Below, piece after piece: positions 2,698-39,711 of a stretch of 64,000 nt of DNA (positions are counted from its first letter, which is position 1; every line of letters begins with the position of its first letter). Origin of the DNA: an uncultured Gammaproteobacteria bacterium (GTDB taxonomy: Bacteria; Patescibacteriota; Patescibacteriia; UBA9934; GWF2-40-263); the NCBI GenBank assembly GCA_964399675.1, contig CAYNRK010000003.1, positions 9,033 through 73,032 of the forward strand, given 5' to 3'. The notes under the pieces were generated by a model. It saw only the letters and a list, made by a program, of their open reading frames with translations. It was not told the origin of the DNA and did no database searches. The translations under genes were made by a program, and so were the position numbers.

Positions 2698-3579
2698 ATG
2701 ACAACCCGAGTTTCTCGGGCCGTGAACGCCGGCGGTTTCAAGGAGGGCTACTCCATTATGGAACGCCTTATCGAGATCAGACATACCGAACTCCACCCAA
2801 CCCTTCGCGCTCTCTCGAGTGCGGGTGTGACCGTCGATGACGCAACTTGGCTCCGTCGGGACGGCAATGCCGCACTGGTCGAAGCCTTCATTCGAAGGAC
2901 ACGCGATCAGTACCCCTTCAAGCAGAGTATCCGAGAACAGCTCGCTGCTCTGCATGAGCAGAACAATGCTGGTAACTGGGGTATCCCAATGGAGACGTTC
3001 TCTTACCTCGTCGCTAGAGCTCCGAAATGGCCCAAGGGTCGCGACGCGTATCGCTCGTTCCGCATCCGCTTTGGCGAGGGGGTCAAAGGTGTGGCCAAGA
3101 CCTTTGAAGCGCACGCTGCAGCCATGAAGCGTGTCTTCGGTAACAGGTTCTGGCGCTGGGATTCTCTTCTGTCCGGCAAGACCCCACACCAACGCAAGGG
3201 TGGCGAGGATGTGGAGCGTTTGCGTTTGCTCAACGGCAACGATACTCATCGTCCTACAGTCCAGTGGGTCATCATTCCGGATCTGTCGGTCCATCGCCAG
3301 CGTGAGGACATCACGTCCGTACGTAACCCTCTGTCCCTGGCGGACGAAGGGCTTGTGCTTGCGTGGCTCAACCCCAAGCGTGCCGAGGCTGTTGACTACG
3401 AGGAGTGGCCGGCCTGGTTCTGTGCTGGTTACGAGCTCAACGTTCCCGAGCACGACGAAGAGCCATGGCAGAGCGTGGTGGTCGTGGGTCGCAGCGGGGG
3501 CGATAGCGAGGCAAGTCTGAGCGCCTACTTGCGCAACGATTCCAACCCGAGCTGCTCGGTGCCTTGTCTCAAGAGGTAG
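2698..3579 (+). CDS. hypothetical protein encoded in a high-GC (~60%) island; probable horizontally acquired gene
   Basis: 293-aa ORF with balanced, protein-like composition. The fully overlapping antisense ORF 2692..3615 is Arg/Leu/Val-rich and typical of GC-rich antisense noise. A structured GC-rich 5' leader hairpin (gctcac-tag-gtgagc) lies at 2655-2669. Confidence 0.5.
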   Translation: MTTRVSRAVNAGGFKEGYSIMERLIEIRHTELHPTLRALSSAGVTVDDATWLRRDGNAALVEAFIRRTRDQYPFKQSIREQLAALHEQNNAGNWGIPMETFSYLVARAPKWPKGRDAYRSFRIRFGEGVKGVAKTFEAHAAAMKRVFGNRFWRWDSLLSGKTPHQRKGGEDVERLRLLNGNDTHRPTVQWVIIPDLSVHRQREDITSVRNPLSLADEGLVLAWLNPKRAEAVDYEEWPAWFCAGYELNVPEHDEEPWQSVVVVGRSGGDSEASLSAYLRNDSNPSCSVPCLKR

Positions 3580-3714
3580 TACCGAACTTGCCGCATCTGA
3601 GATTCGATCCAACAACGGGTCGCTCTCTTGGGTGCGGCTTTTCTATTGTTTTTGAGGCGATTCAAACTCCTTGACAAGAAGGCTTGTTTTAGGCAAGATA
3701 TTGGCGAATTCGAA

Positions 3715-3741
3715 TTAGCACTCTATTAGGGGGTTTGCTAA
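3715..3741 (+). promoter_or_regulatory. CIRCE-like HrcA operator (TTAGCACTC-N9-GTTTGCTAA) upstream of groES; possible -35 TTGACA at 3671-3676
   Basis: Left half-site is perfect TTAGCACTC with a 9-nt spacer; right half matches GAGTGCTAA at 7/9. Canonical position upstream of groESL. Confidence 0.6.
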
Positions 3742-3756
3742 TCATTTATTTTTAAG

Positions 3757-3897
3757 CCTGTGTCATTGCGAGTCCGGCAGAGTCGGGCAAGTCCCTGCAT
3801 CCTGTGTCATTGCGAGGCCTAAAAGGCCGAAGCAATCCTCGTATAACGAAGATTGCCGCGTCGCCCCGTCTGACGGGGCTCCTCGCAATGACACAGG
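3757..3897. repeat. nested palindromic repeat element (family GTCATTGCGAG / CTCGCAATGAC), two tandem 5' arms plus internal hairpins
   Basis: cctgtgtcattgcgag occurs at 3757 and 3801. Its exact reverse complement cctcgcaatgacacagg is at 3881-3897. Internal modules are gaagcaatcctcgtataacgaagattgc and gccccgtctgacggggc. Confidence 0.85.
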
Positions 3898-3930
3898 ACG
3901 CGAGATGCAAAGCAACGACAAAAACAAAAT

Positions 3931-5858
<1,928 letters not shown>

Positions 5859-5864
5859 TAGAAA

Positions 5865-5965
5865 TATATTGAAATAAGTGGAAACTAATTGAAATAAATG
5901 GAAATAGGTTGTATTCAATCTATTTCTATTTTATTTCTGCCTATTTCTACTTATTTCCATTTTTG
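5865..5965 (+). terminator. compound stem-loop / probable groESL terminator
   Basis: Inner hairpin gaaatag-N12-ctatttc is nested within a longer inverted repeat (tgaaataagtggaaa ... tttctacttatttcca), followed by TTTTTG. Confidence 0.45.
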
Positions 5966-5991
5966 TTAGAATGTTTATATAAACAAAAATT

Positions 5992-6312
5992 ATGACTTCA
6001 CAAAAAGCTCCAACAAAAGACGAGAAACTTTTAAGTGCAATTGGATATTTGGGCGTGCTTTGCATTGTGCCACTTATTCTAAAACGCAAAAGTGCATACG
6101 CACAGCATCATGGCAAGCAAGGTCTTGTGATTCTTATCGCATGGCTGATCCTTTGGGTAGGTAACATTATTCCGATTCTTGGCCAAATCGTTTGGGTTCT
6201 CGGATCCTTTGCGCTTCTCATCCTTGTTATTTTGGGCGTGATTAATGCTTTTAATGGCAGGATGTGGAAAATGCCGTATCTAGGATCGTTTGCCAAAAAA
6301 TTCAAGTTTTAA
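5992..6312 (+). CDS. small membrane protein (DUF4870-like; 3 TM)
   Basis: 106 aa. N-terminal ...LSAIGYLGVLCIVPLIL..KSAYAQHHGKQGLVI... resembles the DUF4870 family. Confidence 0.5.
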   Translation: MTSQKAPTKDEKLLSAIGYLGVLCIVPLILKRKSAYAQHHGKQGLVILIAWLILWVGNIIPILGQIVWVLGSFALLILVILGVINAFNGRMWKMPYLGSFAKKFKF

Positions 6313-32838: not shown

Positions 32839-33273
32839 ATGCCAGAGCAGTTCACAATCCCACAATTTATTGAGTCAGAAGATAAAATTTTTGGGCCTGT
32901 AACAGCCAGGCAATTTATTATTGTCATGGTTGTTGGGCTTGTAGAGTTTATTTTGTTTAAGGCGATTTCTTTTGTCATATTCTTACTGATAGGTATTCCG
33001 TTTTTTGCTCTTGGAATGATTTTCGCATTTGCCAAAGTCAATGGTCAGCCTTTTCACTACTTTATGTTAAACTTAATTCAGACATTTAAAAAACCATCAC
33101 TGCGAGTTTGGGATAAGACCCTGACGGATTCTGAAATTAAATTTATTATAAAAAAGGTTGAGGAGATTCCACCTGAAGCGCCAAAACGAAAAACAAGATT
33201 AGGTAAATCAAGACTTCAAGAACTTACCCTTGTTGTGAATACAGGCGGTGTATATAAACCAGACGAGAACTAG
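32839..33273 (+). CDS. small two-TM membrane protein (VirB3/PrgI-like) immediately preceding VirB4
   Basis: 144 aa with a hydrophobic hairpin (FIIVMVVGLVEFILF / FVIFLLIGIPFFALGMIFAF). Positioned as in Gram-positive-type T4SS operons. Confidence 0.4.
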   Translation: MPEQFTIPQFIESEDKIFGPVTARQFIIVMVVGLVEFILFKAISFVIFLLIGIPFFALGMIFAFAKVNGQPFHYFMLNLIQTFKKPSLRVWDKTLTDSEIKFIIKKVEEIPPEAPKRKTRLGKSRLQELTLVVNTGGVYKPDEN

Positions 33274-33274
33274 T

Positions 33275-33955
33275 ATGCAATCCAAAAAACTTGCAAAACC
33301 AAAACCAGGACCATCAACGCAGCGCTTTCTTGACATTGCTGAGATTCGAGACGACTTGGTTGTACTAAAAGACGGAACAGTTCGCGGTTTGCTTTTGGTT
33401 TCCAGTATTAACTTCGCACTCAAGTCTGTTGATGAACAAGAGGCAGTTATTCAGGCTTACATGATGTTTCTTAATGGTCTGGAATATCCGATTCAGATTG
33501 TGATTCAATCGCGTCGCATGAACATTGATCCATATATGCAACGGCTTGCAGAACAGCAACGGGCAACTGGGAATGATTTACTTCGTGCGCAAATTTCAGA
33601 TTACAGAAATTTTGTTCAGGAACTTGTTGAACTTGGACAGATAATGCAAAAGCGATTTTATATGGTTGTGCCTTATGATCCTGTTTCTGACAAGAAAAAG
33701 AATTTCTGGACGAGATTTTCCTCGGTTCTTTCACCAGCAGCTTCTTCAAAACTAAACAAAAAACAATTTGAAGAGCGGGCTGAACAACTGTCTCGTCGAA
33801 TTAATGTTGTTATTGGTCAACTCAATGGCATGGGGCTTGCGTCTGTTCGTATGGACACGCAAAGTCTTATTGAGCTTTATTATAATGCTTATAATCCAGA
33901 TCTTTTTGAAAGTGAGAAGCTGGCAGATCTGTCACAAATTCGTCACGAAGAATAA
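33275..33955 (+). CDS. VirB4/TrbE-family N-terminal domain, separated from the ATPase part by a single in-frame TAA
   Basis: ...DIAEIRDDLVVLKDGTVRGLLLVSSINFALKSVDEQEAVIQAYMMFLNGLEYPIQIVIQSRRMNI... matches the CagE/TrbE/VirB4 N-terminal pattern. It is in the same reading frame as 33959..36043. Confidence 0.55.
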   Translation: MQSKKLAKPKPGPSTQRFLDIAEIRDDLVVLKDGTVRGLLLVSSINFALKSVDEQEAVIQAYMMFLNGLEYPIQIVIQSRRMNIDPYMQRLAEQQRATGNDLLRAQISDYRNFVQELVELGQIMQKRFYMVVPYDPVSDKKKNFWTRFSSVLSPAASSKLNKKQFEERAEQLSRRINVVIGQLNGMGLASVRMDTQSLIELYYNAYNPDLFESEKLADLSQIRHEE

Positions 33956-33958
33956 TCT

Positions 33959-36043
33959 ATGCCACTTGATATAGGACAAGTAAAAAAAGCCATGCCAGCA
34001 CCGGCTCCAAAGAAACCAGTTAAATTAAAGCCGGAAGAGGTAAAGGTTAAGCAAGAAAAGCTCGTTTTAGAAGAGGAGCGAATTTATCGTCGGGGTGTTG
34101 TAACTGTTAAAGATGTTATTGCTCCTGCGGCATTTCAAGTCAATCCAAGGCACCTTTTACTTTCAGGTGTTTATGTGCAAACGCTTTTCATTATTACTTA
34201 CCCGCGTCACATTGGTATTGGTTGGGCAACGCCGCTTATTAATTTGAATAAAACTTTTGATGTTGCAATGTTTTTTTATCCACTCAAAGCAAACATTGTA
34301 CTCAAACAGCTTCAGAAAAAAGTTGGTGTGTTTGAGGCAAAGGTTCTGGGTGATGCTGAAAAAGGTGCGCCGCGTGATCCAATTGCTGAGACTGCATTAC
34401 GTGACATTGAGGCGCTTCGCGATGCACTTACGCAAGGGATTGAACATTTTTTCCAATTTGCTTTTTACATTACAATTTACGCAAAGAGTCAGGACGAACT
34501 TGATAAATATGCACAAGAAGTTGAAGCGCTGTTTGGGAGCAAGTTGATTTATACAAAGACTGGTTTTTATCAAACCGAACAAGGATTTAATTCCACAATC
34601 CCGCTTGGTAATGATGAGATCATGATTACCTATAACATGAACACATCGCCAATAGCAGCATCCTTCCCGTTTGTGAGTTCTGATGTTTCTTCTGATGATG
34701 GAATTTTGTATGGGATTAATAGACACAACAACTCGCTTATCTTGTTTGATCGGTTTAGTTTGCAAAACGCTAACTCGGTTGTGTTTGCTACTTCTGGTGC
34801 TGGAAAGTCCTATGCTATTAAACTTGAGATTTTGCGAAGCTTGATGATGGGAACAGATGTGATTGTGATTGATCCTGAAATGGAATATAAAGATTTGTCT
34901 GACGCAACCGGAGGAACATATATTAATGTGTCACTTGCTTCGGATGCAAAAGTTAATCCGTTTGATTTGCCGCGCGCGGTTGGAGAGGGTACAAAAGTTG
35001 AAGATATAATTAGAAGCGCTGTTATTACTCTTAAGGGTCTTTTGCGTATTATGATCGGAAAGCCGCAAGGGGCTTCCGGCACTCTTGGTTTCACACCAGA
35101 GGAAGATTCCATGCTTGACCAAGCGCTTATTGAGACATTTGCGAAAAAAGACATCACACCTGATATTACGGATTTATCCAATGTAGAAGCTCCGATTTTT
35201 TCTGATTTTCAAGATGTGCTTGAAGGTATGGAAGGGGCTGATGATTTAGTAGCACGGTTGCGCAAATATACTGAAGGTACATTTTCCGGACTTCTTAATT
35301 CTCCAACAACTGTTGAGATGGATAATCAGCTTGTAGTCTTTTCTGTGCGAGATTTAGAAGATGAGCTTAGGCCTGTTGGAATTTATTCCATTGTTAATTA
35401 TATTTGGAATGTTGTGCGTTCTGTGCGAAAGAAGCGAATCATGGTTATTGATGAGGCTTGGTGGCTGATGCAACAGGAAGATTCTGCTAAGTTTATTTTT
35501 GCACTTGTAAAGCGTTGTAGAAAATACTTCATGGGAGTCACAACAATCACGCAAGATGTTAATGACTTTTTGCGCTCGCCTTATGGTCAGGCGATTGTAA
35601 CAAACTCCTCGCTCCAAATTTTGCTTAAGCAATCTACGTCCGCGATTGATCTCGTTCAAAAGACGTTTAATTTAACGGATGGAGAAAAGTATTTACTTTT
35701 GGAATCAGGTATTGGAGAAGGAATTTTCTTTGCCGGACAAAAGCACGCGGCAATTAAAATTATTGCTTCTTATACTGAAGATCAAATTGTTACAACAAAT
35801 CCGGCACAGCTTTTGGAGATTGAAGAGGCAAAGAAAGAGTTTGAGGCGCAGCTTGAAGAGAAGGGTGGAGGAGAGGTAGCCCCAGGCTTTAGCCTGGGCG
35901 AAGATGTCGAAGGGGAGGAAAAGATTACAGTTAATGAAGCTCAAAAAGAAGCGCAAGCACAAGACGCTGCTTCAGCACTTTTGTCACAAGAAGATGCCGG
36001 CAAAGCCGAAGCAGATAAAATTCGCGATTCACTTACCATATGA
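33959..36043 (+). CDS. VirB4/TraC-like conjugative-transfer ATPase, C-terminal ATPase portion
   Basis: Walker A VFATSGAGKSYAIK; Walker B RIMVIDEAWWLM (DEAW); 694 aa. Together with the preceding ORF, about 930 aa. Confidence 0.75.
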   Translation: MPLDIGQVKKAMPAPAPKKPVKLKPEEVKVKQEKLVLEEERIYRRGVVTVKDVIAPAAFQVNPRHLLLSGVYVQTLFIITYPRHIGIGWATPLINLNKTFDVAMFFYPLKANIVLKQLQKKVGVFEAKVLGDAEKGAPRDPIAETALRDIEALRDALTQGIEHFFQFAFYITIYAKSQDELDKYAQEVEALFGSKLIYTKTGFYQTEQGFNSTIPLGNDEIMITYNMNTSPIAASFPFVSSDVSSDDGILYGINRHNNSLILFDRFSLQNANSVVFATSGAGKSYAIKLEILRSLMMGTDVIVIDPEMEYKDLSDATGGTYINVSLASDAKVNPFDLPRAVGEGTKVEDIIRSAVITLKGLLRIMIGKPQGASGTLGFTPEEDSMLDQALIETFAKKDITPDITDLSNVEAPIFSDFQDVLEGMEGADDLVARLRKYTEGTFSGLLNSPTTVEMDNQLVVFSVRDLEDELRPVGIYSIVNYIWNVVRSVRKKRIMVIDEAWWLMQQEDSAKFIFALVKRCRKYFMGVTTITQDVNDFLRSPYGQAIVTNSSLQILLKQSTSAIDLVQKTFNLTDGEKYLLLESGIGEGIFFAGQKHAAIKIIASYTEDQIVTTNPAQLLEIEEAKKEFEAQLEEKGGGEVAPGFSLGEDVEGEEKITVNEAQKEAQAQDAASALLSQEDAGKAEADKIRDSLTI

Positions 36044-36633
36044 TTACACCTGAAAAACGACGAACTATTATAGTATTGATCATTGTTTTGCTCTTTTTAA
36101 TTTTCTTTTTTACTGGTTTTTTTCTTTTAACAAGATCAACAGACTCTCCTGCGTCGTTGCGAGGAGCCGAAGGCGACGAAGCAATCTCCGTAACTGAAGA
36201 ACAAATGCTTGAATCAGAAAAAAATAATCAAGAGACCCGATTAGAGCAAGAACAAGCAGAACGCAATGAAACAAGTAATGTTACTTCACTATCCAAAACT
36301 TTTGTTGAGCGTTATGGAAGTTATTCAACAGAAGCGAATTTCCAAAATCTTAGAGATGTTTTACCACTCATGACTTCTTCGTTTGCTGCAAGAACCGAGC
36401 AATTTATTTCAACTGCTAAAACACCTTCTGAATATTATGGAGTGAGCACTGATGTGATTACAGTTAATGTTGAGGTGATGGAAGAGGATGAATCCGCCAT
36501 AGTTCTTATAACAACACAAAGAGAAGAGGCAAAAGGATTGCCCGGTAATGTATCAATAAAATATCAGGATGTTCGTGTGGAATATTTATTTGAATCTGGT
36601 TCATGGAAAGTCAACTCAGCCGATTGGTTGTAG
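36040..36633 (+). CDS. bitopic membrane protein (N-terminal TM + ~150-aa external domain); possible VirB8-like component
   Basis: TM segment IIVLIIVLLFLIFFFTGFFLL followed by a soluble domain. 4-nt overlap with the VirB4 stop. Confidence 0.4.
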   Translation: MITPEKRRTIIVLIIVLLFLIFFFTGFFLLTRSTDSPASLRGAEGDEAISVTEEQMLESEKNNQETRLEQEQAERNETSNVTSLSKTFVERYGSYSTEANFQNLRDVLPLMTSSFAARTEQFISTAKTPSEYYGVSTDVITVNVEVMEEDESAIVLITTQREEAKGLPGNVSIKYQDVRVEYLFESGSWKVNSADWL

Positions 36634-37292
36634 AAAGCGTTTTCCCGCGTTTTTGCGTTGGGTGCCGGAGGGAAGGGTCGCTGTGGTGTGAGATTTGCGA
36701 TGAACTTCAGGTTCAATTTTTTTTATCTCCATCATGTCCGTTTTGTTCACGCAAAGGTTCTAATAGAACTTGTCAGGATTGTAAGTCCTACACATATCTC
36801 GATGGACTAACAGCAATGGGGCCGTACGCGAATACAAAAATTAAAGAAGCAATTAAATTGTGGAAGTATTATCAGGACAGATTTATTGAACCAATAATTT
36901 TTAAGTGGCTGCAACAGGAGCTGTCAAGAATGAATCTTCCAATCATGCCGTTTTATGCAACGCACGTTCCACTGCATTTTAAAAAAGAACGAGAGCGTGG
37001 CTTTGATCAGGCAAGGTGTGTTGCTGAGTGGACTGAAAAGCTGTTTGGGATTTTTGTTGAAGATTTGCTTGTAAGGCAGGTTCGTACAGTCTCACAAGCC
37101 AGACAGGAAACAAGAAAGATAGGGGAGTTGGATCACATTTTTGAAATCCATCCGGATGTAGTTGAGGTTCCAGAAAATATCTTGTTATGTGATGATGTGT
37201 TTACATCCGGTGCTACAATGGACGCAGCTGCCAGGCGTCTCAAGGAGTCTGGGGCTAAAATGGTTTGGGGGTTTGTGGTTGCAAGGAAATAA
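36603..37292 (+). CDS. comFC: competence protein ComFC (zinc-finger + phosphoribosyltransferase domain)
   Basis: N-terminal Cys clusters (CVGCRREGSLWCEICDELQ...CPFCSRKGSNRTCQDCKSY). PRTase motif LLCDDVFTSGATMDAA. Confidence 0.75.
   Translation: MESQLSRLVVESVFPRFCVGCRREGSLWCEICDELQVQFFLSPSCPFCSRKGSNRTCQDCKSYTYLDGLTAMGPYANTKIKEAIKLWKYYQDRFIEPIIFKWLQQELSRMNLPIMPFYATHVPLHFKKERERGFDQARCVAEWTEKLFGIFVEDLLVRQVRTVSQARQETRKIGELDHIFEIHPDVVEVPENILLCDDVFTSGATMDAAARRLKESGAKMVWGFVVARK
37263..37286 (+). repeat. left copy of a 25-bp direct repeat (gtttgggggtttgtggttgcaagg), forming the 3' end of comFC
   Basis: About 21/24 nt identical to 38163..38187. Encodes VWGFVVARK*. Confidence 0.7.
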
Positions 37293-37314
37293 GTTTAATT
37301 CTCCAAAAATAACT

Positions 37315-38154
37315 ATGTCTAAAAAAGGCAACTCAATTATACTTTTTCATGAAAAACAAGTTCGTCGTTATTGGGATGAGGAAGATGAACTTTGGTATTT
37401 TTCGATTGTGGATGTTCTTGAAGTTTTAACAGGAAATACAAGACCGAGAAAATATTGGAATGATTTAAAAAAGAAGCTGTTGCTTGAGGGCAGTCAGTTG
37501 TCCGAAAAAATCGGACAACTGAAAATGCAGTCATCTGATGGAAAATTTTATAAAACTGATGTTTTGGATACGGAAAATTTATTGAGACTTATTCAATCGG
37601 TGCCGTCTCCAAAAGCAGAGCCATTGAAACTTTGGCTTGCCCAAGTTGGTTACGAGCGAATTGAAGAAACCGAAGATCCTGAACTTGCTTTTGACCGAGC
37701 AATGCAAACCTATTTGCAAAAAGGCTATTCCAAAGACTGGATAAATCAAAGACTTAAAACAATCGAAGTTCGCAAAGAACTCACAGATGAGTGGAAAGAA
37801 CGAGGAGTTAAAGAAGGTTTAGAATTTGCTATTTTGACGGATGAAATTACCAAAGCTTGGTCTGGAAAGTCTGTAAAACAGTACAAAAAGTTTAAAGATC
37901 TTAAAAAGCAAAACTTGAGAGACAACATGACCAATCTTGAACTTATTTTGAACATGCTTGCCGAAGCGACAACGACCGAAATTTCAAAAGAAAAAGAGCC
38001 AAAGACTTTATTGGAAAGCAAGGGAATTGCAAGAGAGGGAGGAGAGACAGCAGGAAAAGCAAGAAAAGATATTGAAAAGAAAATAGGGAAAAATGTTATT
38101 TCTTCCAAAAGCGTAAAAGAGTTAAAAAATTCAAAACAAGATCTACTTCAGTAA
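37315..38154 (+). CDS. Bro-N domain protein (phage antirepressor / DinD-like)
   Basis: N-terminal ...ILFHEKQVRRYWDEEDELWYFSIVDVLEVLTG... matches the Bro-N pattern. The ATG at 37315 follows the comFC stop. Confidence 0.6.
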   Translation: MSKKGNSIILFHEKQVRRYWDEEDELWYFSIVDVLEVLTGNTRPRKYWNDLKKKLLLEGSQLSEKIGQLKMQSSDGKFYKTDVLDTENLLRLIQSVPSPKAEPLKLWLAQVGYERIEETEDPELAFDRAMQTYLQKGYSKDWINQRLKTIEVRKELTDEWKERGVKEGLEFAILTDEITKAWSGKSVKQYKKFKDLKKQNLRDNMTNLELILNMLAEATTTEISKEKEPKTLLESKGIAREGGETAGKARKDIEKKIGKNVISSKSVKELKNSKQDLLQ

Positions 38155-38162
38155 TTTTAGAA

Positions 38163-38187
38163 GTTTGGGGATTTGCAGTTGCAAAGG
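38163..38187 (+). repeat. right copy of the 25-bp direct repeat (gtttggggatttgcagttgcaaagg)
   Basis: Duplicates the 3' end of comFC just after the Bro-N gene; would encode VWGFAVAKGS*. Confidence 0.7.
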
Positions 38188-38234
38188 GTTCGTGATTCAG
38201 TTATTGTAATTTTATTAAGAGATTTTAATCACTT

Positions 38235-39155
38235 TTGATTCATAGTATTTATTTTCATATGCCTGAACCACGATCAATGTTACCTGCAATCGAACCAGAG
38301 CCACGATCGCAAACAGACCTGGAAATAGGGCGAGATTTAGCTTCTTATAAACTTCTTTTTCAAGAAGCAGGGTTAGATCCCGATACTATTGATACTCGGC
38401 TGTTGGAACGCTTTGCATTACTTGATGAGAAAACCCCGGTTCTTGATGATGAGCGTTTGATGATGCAATACGCAGATAAGGTTTTTGATTATTGCGACAG
38501 AGTTGACTCAGAAAATGCTATGGATGTGTATGGTCGTCGTGTTGTTAGGCTTGGAACCCTGCTTGCAGATATTGGAAAAACAGGGCCATTAGATGCAACA
38601 CCGGAACAGCAAACGCTTGTTACTGAAATGTATGCTATTGATGAACCGTTTGACGGAAATAAATCAGTTACAGAATATTTAGAAACTTTTTTTCCTAATG
38701 AATATCAAGCAAGGATGGAAACATTTAAAACCCTTAAACTAGATCCAGACATGACCATGCGCGATTTTTGGAACATGCATGCTAAATGGAGTTTTGATCT
38801 TGTTTCAATGGGTAAGGCGCCTGATGAGATTGCTTATACAGCAGCAATTCATCATTTGCTTGAAGGGGTTGATCCGGTTGGTATCGATAAAAATGGAGAA
38901 TTTATTGGTTTACAAAAACCACGGCCGATTGATCAAAGAGAAATTTTTGTGATCTTGCTTGATAAGTATGATGCACGCAGACGCAGAGGTGGGGTTGATC
39001 ACGCAACCGCAATCGCGTATCTATATGATCGTGTGACAAATAACAATGTACTCGACAGTCTTCCTCAGCGAGTACGAGCACAGTTTATGAGTTGTATCGA
39101 CGATCTGGCTGAAGCACTTAAGTCAACAGAAGGGCAAGTTGAAGTGCCTCAATAA
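38235..39155 (+). CDS. hypothetical protein
   Basis: 306-aa ORF with host-like composition; no recognisable motif. Confidence 0.45.
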   Translation: MIHSIYFHMPEPRSMLPAIEPEPRSQTDLEIGRDLASYKLLFQEAGLDPDTIDTRLLERFALLDEKTPVLDDERLMMQYADKVFDYCDRVDSENAMDVYGRRVVRLGTLLADIGKTGPLDATPEQQTLVTEMYAIDEPFDGNKSVTEYLETFFPNEYQARMETFKTLKLDPDMTMRDFWNMHAKWSFDLVSMGKAPDEIAYTAAIHHLLEGVDPVGIDKNGEFIGLQKPRPIDQREIFVILLDKYDARRRRGGVDHATAIAYLYDRVTNNNVLDSLPQRVRAQFMSCIDDLAEALKSTEGQVEVPQ

Positions 39156-39164
39156 ATCATAAAA

Positions 39165-39195
39165 ACACCAGACTAATAAGTCTGGTGTTTTTATG
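39165..39195 (+). terminator. rho-independent terminator (caccagac-taataa-gtctggtg-TTTTTAT)
   Basis: Perfect 8-bp stem plus a U-tract, 10 nt after the stop. Confidence 0.75.
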
Positions 39196-39258: not shown

Positions 39259-39352
39259 GGAGAGGTACCCAAGCGGCTCAAGGGGACGGTTTGCTAAACC
39301 GTTAGATCGGATTATATCCGGTGCGAGGGTTCGAATCCCTCCCTCTCCGCCA
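39259..39352 (+). tRNA. tRNA-Ser (anticodon GCU), long variable arm, encoded CCA
   Basis: Acceptor ggagagg/cctctcc; anticodon stem-loop acggt-ttGCTaa-accgt; T-arm gttcgaatc; CCA end. Confidence 0.85.
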
Positions 39353-39450
39353 CCCTACGCTTCAACAGTATTATTTATTGTTGAAGCGTAGGGTGTCACC
39401 CGAAGCCTTGGCGAAGGGTGGCCTGAGTGCAGACTAAGTGTTGAAGCTTC
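39353..39450. other. two long hairpins (ccctacgcttcaac-N-gttgaagcgtaggg; cacccgaagc...gcttcgggtg) between tRNA-Ser and the GIY-YIG gene
   Basis: Inverted repeats of 14 and 10 bp read directly. The first abuts the tRNA 3' end. Confidence 0.5.
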
Positions 39451-39459
39451 GGGTGGCCT

Positions 39460-39711
39460 TTGGCCATTAAGTATATGTATTACGTATATCTTCTACGACT
39501 TGCAGATGGTAGTTATTACACAGGAAGCACTCCGGATCTCAAAAAACGTCTAGTAGAGCACGATGGTGGGAAAGCAATATCGACTTCGAATTTGAGGCCG
39601 ATAAAGCTCGTCTGGTATTGTGCGTTTCCAACCCGGATTCAGGCTAGAAGATTTGAGTCGTATCTTAAGACTGGATCTGGGCAGGCGTTTCGAAACAAAA
39701 GAATAGTTTAA
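39460..39711 (+). CDS. GIY-YIG nuclease superfamily small protein (UPF0213/YhbQ-like)
   Basis: YVYLLRLADGSYYTGSTPDLKKRLVEH is a textbook GIY-x10-YTG...R..EH motif. 83 aa. Confidence 0.75.
   Translation: MAIKYMYYVYLLRLADGSYYTGSTPDLKKRLVEHDGGKAISTSNLRPIKLVWYCAFPTRIQARRFESYLKTGSGQAFRNKRIV

Follow-up and report, generated by a model that had tools for sequence, protein, structure and literature searches.

A Bro-N gene between two copies of a comF 3′ end in a Patescibacteria genome best fits the pattern of insertion with long target duplication

Defence genes are much more mobile between genomes than most genes are, and for many of them no vehicle is known. For one class of insertion, insertion with long target duplication (ILTD), the mechanism has to our knowledge never been demonstrated by experiment. 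The pattern is known for restriction-modification genes (Nobusato et al. 2000; Furuta, Abe & Kobayashi 2010, PMC2853133), which are flanked by long duplications of variable length, 46 to ~420 bp, and are accompanied by no other mobile element (PMC2853133). The hosts are mostly naturally competent and the repeats overlap gene 3′ ends; a repeat of >30 bp served as the operational threshold, and the authors' idea was that double-strand cleavage by the cargo drives the insertion (PMC2853133). C-terminal displacement in Rhs, CDI and T6SS effector loci has been explained by homology-facilitated illegitimate recombination (Jackson 2009; Kirchberger 2017, PMC5361080).

The locus described here lies in a 64-kb stretch of DNA (the window) and its features are collected in Table 1. 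The probable event is a recombinase-independent, illegitimate insertion of an 876-bp, one-gene segment of foreign DNA into the final codons of comF, in the course of which ~25 bp of the target were duplicated. Among described systems, the locus best fits ILTD, a pattern already named in the literature (PMC2853133). As in ILTD, the cargo is small and of defence type, and comes without integrase, transposase or terminal repeats. The direct repeats are local and variable in length, 17-190 bp in the Bro-N family against the range given above; in ILTD they are often imperfect, often lie over a host gene 3′ end and are unique in the genome, and the repeat studied here is unique in the 64 kb of the window. 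ILTD hosts are mostly competent; here the gene that was hit serves competence itself, and the genome carries a competence/T4SS-like cluster. However, the cargo is a single gene for a Bro-N/DinD-like DNA-binding protein and not a restriction-modification system, the host is a Patescibacteria (CPR) genome, and the repeat of 24-25 bp is shorter than the 30-bp cut-off, although repeat lengths do vary across the family. The cleavage-by-cargo idea has no counterpart at this locus since no nuclease domain was found.

The displacements seen in Rhs, CDI and T6SS loci share another trait with this locus: the body of the gene persists, cargo comes after a new 3′ end, and the former 3′ end is left as an orphan downstream. 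There, however, what is gained is a functional alternative domain accompanied by its immunity gene, and a long conserved core is shared, whereas here only about 8 codons are repeated, the junction tail is 2 codons long and the cargo has nothing to do with the function of comF. DNA transposons, MITEs and integron cassettes also provide small inserts with a flanking direct duplication, but neither terminal inverted repeats, a fixed duplication length, an attC-like end nor shared termini are present here.

Table 1. Features of the comF/Bro-N locus. Positions are those of the window.
Feature	Position	Strand	Description
comF, ComF/ComFC-family phosphoribosyltransferase-like competence gene	36603..37292	+	TIGR00201 match, homologs, synteny
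comF 3′-end repeat, proximal copy	37263-37286	+	GTTTGGGGGTTTGTGGTTGCAAGG, 24 nt; encodes VWGFVVAR of the live ComF tail
Inserted segment, 876 nt	37287..38162	+	AAATAA, 22-nt leader, Bro-N ORF, TTTTAGAA; bounded by the duplication ends
A-rich leader, 22 nt	37293..37314	+	GTTTAATTCTCCAAAAATAACT; without Shine-Dalgarno sequence
Bro-N + DinD-like protein, 279 aa (840 nt)	37315-38154	+	PF02498; PDC-S13 profile; fold search
Hairpin, perfect 12-bp stem, 5-nt A loop	37494-37522	+	TCAGTTGTCCGA-AAAAA-TCGGACAACTGA; inside the Bro-N ORF
Orphaned original comF 3′ end	38160..38195	+	contains the distal copy 38163-38187
comF 3′-end repeat, distal copy	38163-38187	+	GTTTGGGGATTTGCAGTTGCAAAGG; in frame EVWGFAVAKGS*
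Downstream neighbour, 298 aa from called ATG	38259..39155	+	no family match; outside the insert

The sequence-only reading had placed the repeat correctly and had given its identity as 21/24; the measured value is 19/22 without gaps, or 22/25 with one one-base gap. The longest identical core shared by the copies is at most 8 nt. The counter-case raised at the time, that the 25-mer is a general gene-end motif, does not hold: with up to 3 mismatches allowed, the 22-mer occurs at these two sites only in the 64-kb window, and no match is expected in 100 shuffles. A position-specific score matrix was built from the C-termini of 116 ComF homologs. With this matrix the distal tail EVWGFAVAKG (38160) scored 32.6 bits and the live tail 24.0 bits; the third-ranked match in the six frames of the window reached 9.8 bits, and the best match in 20 shuffled windows 14.9 bits. 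The distal copy is a true ComF C-terminus that has been orphaned. Five independent assemblies (ENA, JGI, Logan) agree on every base of both copies, and an assembly artefact is therefore excluded. No obvious decay is seen in the distal remnant, which for an old insertion would be slightly surprising.

The C-terminal consensus of ComF runs to A[KR]G, followed by 0-6 residues and the stop, and the distal copy fits it better than the live tail does. The live tail instead ends in ARK*, an ending seen in 0/119 ComF homologs; the 90% cluster of ComF holds ARK* tails only. The final codon AAA and the stop TAA (37290-37292) belong to the inserted DNA. Because ARK* is absent from the 119 homologs, and because its last codon and stop adjoin a leader common to two other Bro-N loci (L017 and L064), this tail looks like a junction product and not a natural allele.

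The gene interrupted near its end is the last of a conserved PrgI-TraC-VirB4-p197-comF cluster. The TIGR00201 ComF model matched its residues 45-228 over model positions 1-190/190 with 67 bits, below the curated cut-off of 233, and PF18912 and PF00156 gave weak matches, both just under their thresholds. We found 196 ComF homologs, some of which are called ComF family protein by NCBI and JGI; the nearest among 5.8 billion proteins is 56% identical. Metagenome DNA was scanned for the junction of an empty site and, separately, for the remnant with its flank; neither pattern was matched, and as the occupied allele was missing too, that collection does not contain this organism and the result carries no weight for or against an empty site. 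In the relatives L086-L088, whose comF is 53-55% identical, a single ComF tail is present and comF is not followed by a Bro-N gene. The order PrgI-TraC-VirB4-p19x-comF...tRNA-Ser-tRNA-Ser-p174-tRNA-Arg-recG is kept in relatives, and the downstream neighbour fills the single-gene slot between comF and tRNA-Ser(gct). It starts 63 nt beyond the orphaned comF end, in the same spacing class as the 58 nt that separate comF from the next gene in L088.

Between the two copies, the Bro-N gene has the 840 nt first assigned to it but does not sit there exactly, as had been claimed: 28 nt (AAATAA and the 22-nt leader) separate it from the proximal copy and 8 nt (TTTTAGAA) from the distal one. The absence of an integrase or transposase from the duplicated interval was rightly noted. 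The insert carries one ORF, with Bro-N as its single domain match and without a recombinase domain; no integrase, transposase or other mobility gene is present in the insert, and no integrase was found in or adjoining the interval. No terminal inverted repeats join the insert ends and no conserved cassette ends were found across Bro-N loci; transposon, MITE and att models were rejected on these grounds. DNA homology to other Bro-N loci stops at the ORF ends, except in a Peribacteria copy (L017) and in another Patescibacteria genome (L064), where it extends into the leader with the common motif TTTAATTCT..CAAAAA. Retroposition of an mRNA, considered since homology is limited to the ORF, is unsupported, with no reverse transcriptase nearby and no A-tail. 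A search for promoter or terminator consensus between comF and the Bro-N ORF gave nothing above shuffle expectation. [quoted passage not shown]

The N-terminal part of the encoded protein (residues 15-110) matches PF02498 (Bro-N) with 37.7 bits, against a gathering threshold of 25.6. The DinD model NF008573 gave a weak match of 28.5 bits (curated cut-off 242) that covers residues 123-255 only. The protein has the same domain order as Escherichia coli DinD, Bro-N and then a helical C-terminal domain; judged from these matches, it is related to DinD in architecture but is not an ortholog. Its full length is matched by the PADLOC profile of PDC-S13 (PDLC04920, E 1.1e-129, residues 5-276 on profile positions 4-275/286), and phrog_15286 matches it with E 2e-114. 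The profile match makes it a member of PDC-S13, a candidate anti-phage family, and its defence function is putative. The papers searched contain no mention of PDC-S13 and nothing relevant on Bro-N with DinD, and we know of no defence phenotype for PDC-S13. In Foldseek, the best matches of the AlphaFold model (mean pLDDT 79) were the DdrC entries 8u0g, 7qvb and 7udi (E 4e-5, probability 1.0), with modest TM-scores of 0.39/0.49. The C-terminal domain is helical and DinD-like, and the protein is predicted to have a DdrC-like fold. DdrC of Deinococcus radiodurans, a damage-induced protein, is the best structural match, but no sequence similarity between the two proteins was detected. Searches of Pfam, NCBIfam, PDB sequences and folds returned no nuclease, ligase or recombinase domain in the Bro-N protein.

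This protein has more than 8000 homologs, the best of them 73-87% identical. Genome copies at 65-79% identity occur in Saccharibacteria, Peribacteria, Marinimicrobia, Cloacimonadota, Gammaproteobacteria, Bacteroidota, Planctomycetota and others, and a scan of one genome per species confirmed at least 559 copies. The gene has spread horizontally and promiscuously across phyla. It is found in 4/50,697 phage records, 24/72,556 plasmids and 14 IMG/VR loci, all at ≤67% identity, and a phage or plasmid as usual carrier was rejected on account of this rarity. The earlier description of the gene as phage antirepressor-like survives as a label of its Bro-N domain. Its nature is another: a chromosomal gene, rare in phages and plasmids, and a DinD/DdrC-like candidate for defence.

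Flanking repeats were surveyed at Bro-N loci from 80 other genomes, with neighbouring genes of the same loci, taken from crude ORF calls, as controls. Direct repeats flank 15/68 Bro-N genes, compared with 15/194 of their neighbours (p = 0.003); restricted to E < 1e-5, the figures are 11/68 and 6/194 (p = 0.0006). In about a dozen loci, tandem paralogs and REP-like repeats being left out of the count, the repeats are 17-190 bp of local host sequence and the insert ends are unrelated. Repeats of variable length derived from the host are therefore recurrent in this family. At L054, the duplicated sequence is 87 nt from the 3′ end of comM/YifB. L096 provides the corresponding empty site, and its post-stop flank matches the flank of the L054 remnant. 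Polarisable substitutions at L054 fall in the distal copy in 6/6 cases (4 non-synonymous, 2 synonymous). The empty site and the polarised substitutions establish L054 as a true target duplication followed by decay.

The Bro-N ORF also contains a hairpin, spanning codons 60-70 (amino acids QLSEKIGQL and one flanking base per side). In its stem 10/12 pairs covary, with 163 double-change cells versus 46.5 in shuffles, and a further test gave z = -5. The structure is kept across the Bro-N family by compensatory changes, some of the swaps being purely synonymous. This covariation indicates that the hairpin is selected at the nucleic-acid level, taking precedence over the choice of codons and even over the amino acids encoded. 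G.T pairs are not in excess over A.C pairs, and the selected form may be RNA or DNA, on either strand. As a possible marker of recombination between lineages, the three classes of stem were compared with the protein backbone, which they follow only in part, the nearest neighbour sharing the class in 59/81 cases versus 33% by chance. A covariance model of the hairpin matched Bro-N genes and their fragments only; a dispersed repeat was rejected on this basis. No Rfam family matches it, and a conserved DNA/RNA hairpin within a Bro-N gene seems not to have been described before. Short Bro-N fragments adjoin full copies in L014, L016 and L097, and are centred on the hairpin or end just past it.

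These data suggest the following course of events for an insertion with long target duplication. A foreign one-gene segment would have entered by DNA uptake or transformation. The allele before insertion would have had a single 25-mer, with comF...GTTGCAAAGGGTTCGTGA joined straight to the flank at 38196. The ~25-bp duplication may have arisen through repair of a staggered break with fill-in, or through template switching. The proximal copy would then complete the live comF, whose reading frame continues for two codons in the inserted DNA and closes at the TAA there (...VWGFVVARK*), while the distal copy would be the original end (...VWGFAVAKGS*), stranded before the original intergenic spacer and the next gene. 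A later one-base deletion may have shortened the live tail. Transcription of the Bro-N gene probably comes from read-through of the comF operon, because no promoter or terminator of its own was detected. The footprint of an insertion with target duplication, as proposed in the sequence-only reading, gains support from the orphaned ComF C-terminus, the syntenic relatives lacking Bro-N, the mobility of the gene and the repeats found at unrelated sites. Several points count against this explanation: no exact empty site for this genome turned up in the data searched, the copies differ at 3/22 aligned bases and by one indel, with changes that are unpolarised, the repeat falls short of the 30 bp used by Furuta et al., and in ~80% of Bro-N loci a flanking repeat is undetected within 500 nt.

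Several other explanations were weighed against it. Chance resemblance, with the distal 25-mer an unrelated intergenic sequence and Bro-N an ordinary resident gene, could draw on the shortness of the repeat, which by itself gives a blastn E of 0.006 between flanks of 500 x 500 nt. With no match expected in the whole window, a distal translation scoring far above the shuffled windows and no Bro-N gene in syntenic relatives, this explanation has next to no probability and is refuted at the level of the repeat, tail-matrix and synteny tests. Site-specific integration would make the 25-mers the attL and attR cores of a small integrative element whose integrase is elsewhere or lost. Direct repeats over a gene 3′ end are typical of integrase insertion, the element restoring the gene end, and the sequence 1-1.5 kb downstream holds tRNA genes and a GIY-YIG nuclease gene. 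However, no integrase lies in or beside the interval, and the repeats are imperfect, with the short identical core given above. The att-like repeat that had been offered as an alternative also finds no support across the family, where repeats differ at every locus and insert ends are not shared. Lacking a common att-like sequence among loci, site-specific integration is largely refuted, and we regard it as very unlikely.

C-terminal displacement by homology-facilitated illegitimate recombination would make the copies donor and recipient comF alleles and not an in situ duplication. The 3′ part of comF from another Patescibacteria strain, followed by Bro-N, would have entered with its left end homologous inside comF and its right end illegitimate upstream of the recipient tail. 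The succession of gene body, new tail, cargo and orphaned old tail is the architecture of Rhs/T6SS effector arrays (PMC5361080). Where the copies differ, the changes are synonymous or conservative, and either copy reads as an acceptable ComF tail; moreover, the repeats in L023 enclose 340 nt from the tail of the topA-like ORF upstream. Against this stand the ARK* ending, which looks like a junction product and takes its last codon and stop from the insert, and the need for a donor with Bro-N already behind comF. In L054, the sole polarisable locus, it is the live copy that is native and the distal copy that decays. Displacement is unlikely. It is also doubtful, and rather more so, that the gene promotes its own insertion as a recombinase-free selfish cassette, the DdrC-like protein, which may bridge nicks and DNA ends, and/or the hairpin acting in cis or in trans to favour or regulate its integration at staggered breaks. 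DdrC is able to bridge a pair of nicks or of double-strand ends and to circularise linear DNA (PMC11347143), and its entries are the best structural matches of the model. The crossing of phyla as a bare ORF, the enrichment of flanking duplications, the selection on the hairpin as nucleic acid and the hairpin-centred or hairpin-ending fragments beside full copies all point the same way. Nevertheless, the protein has no nuclease or ligase domain, its TM-scores to DdrC are modest, and it would be required before its own gene was integrated. Nothing direct ties the hairpin to the junctions, and defence genes generally show such mobility without encoding it.

Read as an insertion with long target duplication, this locus and its dozen or so sister loci would extend the pattern from restriction-modification systems to a single-gene, non-nuclease defence candidate. 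They would also extend it to the candidate phyla radiation, and to an insertion in the last codons of a competence gene that does not destroy the gene. The Bro-N family is abundant and holds insertions of many ages, which makes it well suited, as a natural data set, to work on the mechanism. This hairpin with its covarying stem may explain the regulation or the movement of a promoterless gene in hosts of a dozen phyla. Self-promoted insertion, if this doubtful reading were true, would offer a first way into the mechanism of insertion with long target duplication; at minimum, the hairpin would be a new class of portable cis-element lying within the coding sequence of a promiscuously transferred defence gene.

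The 3′ end of comF is duplicated on the far side of the Bro-N gene, as the sequence-only reading had claimed. A repeat finder paired positions 37263-37284 with 38163-38184 (22 nt, 86% identity); when one gap is allowed the repeat lengthens to GCAA(A)GG, giving copies of 24 and 25 nt. With up to three mismatches, the 22-mer matches just these two sites in the 64-kb window, where none is expected, and the idea that the 25-mer is a motif common to many gene ends was not borne out. The C-terminal ends of 116 ComF homologs were used to derive a score matrix, which was scanned in six frames. The distal copy (EVWGFAVAKG, 38160) scored 32.6 bits, compared to 24.0 bits for the live tail (MVWGFVVARK), at most 9.8 bits for all other sites and at most 14.9 bits in 20 shuffled windows. 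This translation is the strongest evidence, since it is independent of the nucleotide match. The consensus ComF ending is ...VWGF[VA][IVL]A[KR]G plus 0-6 further residues, and the distal AKGS* conforms; the live ending ARK* was found in none of 119 ComF homologs. Each of the two copies is unchanged across five assemblies, independently built from different samples.

Coordinates and features of the comF/Bro-N region in the window and of other Bro-N loci (L numbers).
Locus	Feature	Position	Strand	Description
Window	PrgI to comF	32839-37292		PrgI, TraC-like, VirB4/TraG-like ATPase, small membrane protein, comF
Window	comF	36603-37292	+	end reads ...AAA ATG GTT TGG GGG TTT GTG GTT GCA AGG AAA TAA
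Window	Inserted segment	37287-38162	+	876 nt; provides last codon and stop codon of live comF
Window	A-rich leader		+	22 nt, between comF and Bro-N ORF
Window	Bro-N ORF	37315-38154	+	279 codons
Window	Hairpin	37494-37522		perfect 12-bp stem, AAAAA loop, within Bro-N ORF
Window	Sequence after Bro-N ORF		+	TTTTAGAA, then GTT TGG GGA TTT GCA GTT GCA AAG GGT TCG TGA
Window	Palindrome before tRNA-Ser(gct)	39158-39195		17-bp-stem terminator-like hairpin after 298-aa gene
Window	Palindrome after tRNA-Ser(gct)	39351-39395		45 nt; spurious microRNA matches, both strands
Window	GIY-YIG nuclease gene	39460-39711		stand-alone, 83 aa, between tRNA-Ser(gct) and tRNA-Ser(tga)
L054	Flanking repeat			87 nt of comM/YifB gene: 3′ end of upstream gene, stop included
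L023	Flanking repeat			internal piece of upstream ORF
L077	Flanking repeat			5′ end of divergent gene, 22 nt, perfect
L030, L058, L050, L003	Flanking repeats			intergenic DNA with terminator
L007	Tandem Bro-N paralogs	3998-6118		183 nt before first copy recur (98% identical) before second
L064	Tandem Bro-N paralogs	2760-4590		37-nt piece of downstream gene's 5′ region fused to first paralog's end
L014	Bro-N fragment	4877-4908		hairpin with few flanking codons
L097	Bro-N fragment	5513-5544		hairpin with few flanking codons
L016	N-terminal Bro-N piece	4838-4999		ends shortly after hairpin
L097	N-terminal Bro-N piece	5065-5328		ends shortly after hairpin
L097	Interruption of decayed Bro-N	5330-5500		broken up by short palindromes CAAGTGTCCACACTTG, AAGCGTCCACGCTT, AAGCGTGAACGCTT, CAAGTGCAGACACTTG
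L032	Partial Bro-N copy	4989-5531		

The ComF homologs place the host group in the Patescibacteria (Uhrbacteria-like). The nearest relatives in the protein collection searched, L086/L087 and L088 (VirB4 74-76%, ComF 53-55% identical), keep the order PrgI, TraC-like, VirB4, p19x, comF, one gene, tRNA-Ser(gct), tRNA-Ser(tga), p174, tRNA-Arg(gcg), recG, and have no Bro-N gene at this synteny. These relatives show the synteny and the absence of Bro-N, and a single-copy 25-mer in the ancestral comF is what we infer. Two scans of metagenome DNA matched neither an empty site nor even the occupied allele, and so carry no weight either way. Between the orphaned tail and the next gene (38259) lie 63 nt, and between the L088 comF stop and the gene that follows it 58 nt; therefore the distal copy marks the original comF end. 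With a ComF tail in the distal copy, relatives without Bro-N and recurrence in the family, the locus is very probably an insertion footprint, as first read. Compared to L088, the window has two additional small genes, Bro-N and the GIY-YIG gene. The latter appears to be another small insertion into this variable stretch; about 200 nt without a gene separate the two tRNA-Ser genes in L088. Strong palindromes lie on both sides of tRNA-Ser(gct). The gene order from PrgI to comF, conserved with L086-L088, suggests that comF closes a DNA-uptake operon resembling type IV secretion.

If the 25-mer target read as in the distal copy, a fresh junction would have read ...AKEISLILQK*, and the subsequent loss of one A would have given the present ...ARK*. 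No consensus promoter or terminator was found between comF and the Bro-N ORF, and the two are co-oriented. Therefore read-through from the PrgI-TraC-VirB4-p197-comF cluster would be the simplest model for Bro-N expression.

Flanking repeats recur in the family. In 80 loci, the upstream and downstream 500-nt flanks of the ORF were compared with each other, with 194 neighbouring ORFs as controls. Direct repeats flank 15 of the 68 testable Bro-N genes, compared to 15/194 neighbours (Fisher p = 0.003), and restriction to E < 1e-5 gives 11/68 and 6/194 (p = 0.0006). Among the 15 positives, L007 and L064 are tandem Bro-N paralogs and L052 lies among REP-like repeats; the others show repeats of local host sequence that span 17-190 nt at 80-100% identity. 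No end sequence is common to the inserts, which carry between 0 and 404 nt of non-coding DNA.

The comM/YifB site of L054 bears on how such repeats may arise. The closest YifB proteins (96% identical) end exactly in its live tail, and L096 is its empty site, where the sequence after the stop runs on into the flank of the L054 remnant. With L096 and L097 as outgroups, and counting by hand from the printed sequences, all six polarisable differences (four non-synonymous, two synonymous) map to the distal copy, with none assigned to the live copy; the polarity of three synonymous sites is ambiguous. This is the pattern expected of an 87-nt target duplication with an orphan copy that then decays. 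At this site L097, a Mucilaginibacter relative (82% DNA identity), retains a degraded piece of Bro-N, so the insertion there is old. Both Bro-N fragments of L097 terminate in TTACTCCCGC, and a small repeat element inserted within its Bro-N is suggested. At the window comF, where changes between the copies are unpolarised, we lean towards duplication in situ. The main rival is that the incoming DNA carried a donor's comF end, the two copies being two alleles, and the window architecture does resemble the C-terminal displacement of Rhs and T6SS loci (PMC5361080). However, the ARK* live tail appears to be a junction product and not a natural ComF tail, which argues against an allele.

Insertion with long target duplication (ILTD) was originally described for restriction-modification genes of H. 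pylori and has since turned up in many bacteria, most of them naturally competent, and its authors proposed double-strand breakage by the cargo (PMC2853133). The likeness extends to imperfect, variable-length direct repeats of target DNA that overlap gene 3′ ends, to defence-type cargo, and to the lack of a mobility gene and of defined ends. Integrase-mediated insertion fails its defining tests, and the earlier suggestion of an att-like repeat is not supported; transposon-type insertion likewise fails its own. The window event is best filed as an additional ILTD case, novel in cargo type and in host.

Residues 15-110 of the cargo score above threshold as a Bro-N domain (PF02498), and its C-terminal part weakly matches the DinD model. 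The cargo matches PADLOC PDC-S13, a candidate single-gene defence family, over its full length (E 1e-129), and also phrog_15286. No nuclease, ligase or recombinase domain was found in the protein, and no PDB chain matched it by sequence. A PDB fold search with its AlphaFold model (mean pLDDT 79) returned DdrC of Deinococcus radiodurans alone (8u0g, 7qvb, 7udi; E 4e-5 to 5e-3, probability 1.0, TM 0.39/0.49). DdrC is a damage-induced protein that binds to nicks and to double-strand ends; it can bridge a pair of these and turns linear DNA into circles (PMC11347143). We read the Bro-N protein as a DNA-lesion- or DNA-end-binding member of a candidate defence family, its defence role being putative.

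ComF homologs do not exceed 56% identity; the Bro-N protein has more than 8000 matches, the best 120 at 73-87% identity. In a one-genome-per-species scan, 559 of the first 600 pattern matches proved to be relatives (at least 559 in all). The best 80 loci among the matches listed (65-79% identical) span CPR groups, Marinimicrobia, Cloacimonadota, Gammaproteobacteria, Nitrospirae, Ignavibacteria, Bacteroidota, Planctomycetota, Omnitrophota, Desulfobacterota, Acidobacteriota, Spirochaetota and others. Few copies occur in phages (4/50,697 records), plasmids (24/72,556) and IMG/VR (14 loci, at most 60% identical). Copies are 72-85% identical in nucleotides, the homology ending at most a few bases away from the start and stop codons, except for a leader motif, TTTAATTCT..CAAAAA, which the window copy shares with L017 and L064. 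In 64 of 74 loci the gene lies a short way downstream of a co-oriented gene (median gap 93 nt). Neighbours are often of toxin-antitoxin or defence type (Fic, SocA/Panacea, RhuM); the closest relatives adjoin RhuM-family, Fic, SocA/Panacea and HTH/RadC-fragment genes (after Bro-N in L091-L094, before it in L089/L090; also L095). Twelve Bacteroidota copies (L026, L032, L034, L036, L037, L042, L044, L050, L059, L060, L069, L072) have a conserved non-coding motif, ACAACGAAATGCCAACAA(TGTATATAA), in the 20-30 nt that directly follow the Bro-N stop; in L069 the 123-nt flanking repeat begins with it, and another copy lies behind the upstream unrelated gene. In some CPR and Planctomycetota loci (L018, L031, L038, also L001, L002, L016) a conserved ORF (MSIQILSNLNYPIGNIINQ...) begins 2-4 nt after the stop, suggesting a two-gene variant of the system.

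The Bro-N ORF contains a conserved hairpin; the 81 nt around it fold as RNA at -28.3 kcal/mol (z = -5). The hairpin encodes QLSEKIGQL, the most variable part of a protein otherwise 65-87% identical, and its arms are still complementary. It occupies the same position in L001-L080, L089-L095, L099, L100, L102 and L108-L112, there with an A-rich loop of 3-5 nt. Covariation was counted on 65 distinct sequences. Ten of the 12 stem pairs change on both sides, and double-change cells number 163, compared to 46.5 ± 5.8 in shuffles. Pairing holds in 89% of cells, versus 22-39% with the partner slid by one to three columns, and the innermost seven pairs are Watson-Crick in 440/455 cells. The covarying changes include purely synonymous swaps (CAG TTG...CAA CTG versus CAA CTG...CAG TTG, both QL...QL). 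Stem codons are frozen (Ser TCC 29/30, Ile ATC 31/31, Gly GGA 29/29); Gly residues just outside the stem use all four codons. Paired stem residues match reverse-complement codons (S-G, Y-V, A-S, V-N, T-S, V-H, S-R), a pairing that is senseless as a protein constraint. Selection thus acts on the nucleic acid. Template switching, which can maintain a quasi-palindrome, could explain the joint change of both arms, but not the persistence of the structure over so much divergence.

Searching with a covariance model recovers the hairpin from all Bro-N copies, also from loci outside model building, and from plasmid and viral-contig homologs as distant as about 51-60% identity, but not at 40-50% identity. 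Beyond Bro-N copies it matches just Bro-N fragments, some reduced to little more than the hairpin or ending shortly after it, a hint that breakpoints may concentrate at the hairpin. Partial copies adjoin full copies or mark former insertion sites (L014, L016, L097, L032). No Rfam family matches the hairpin. G.T pairs are no commoner in the stem than A.C pairs, so the element may act as RNA, as single-stranded DNA or as a cruciform. Candidate purposes are portable autoregulation, in which the Bro-N protein would bind the hairpin of its own gene, regulation of translation or of mRNA stability, and a cis role in recombination. The window locus alone would be of moderate interest; this is raised by the recurrence of such insertions across the family and by a covarying hairpin within coding sequence.
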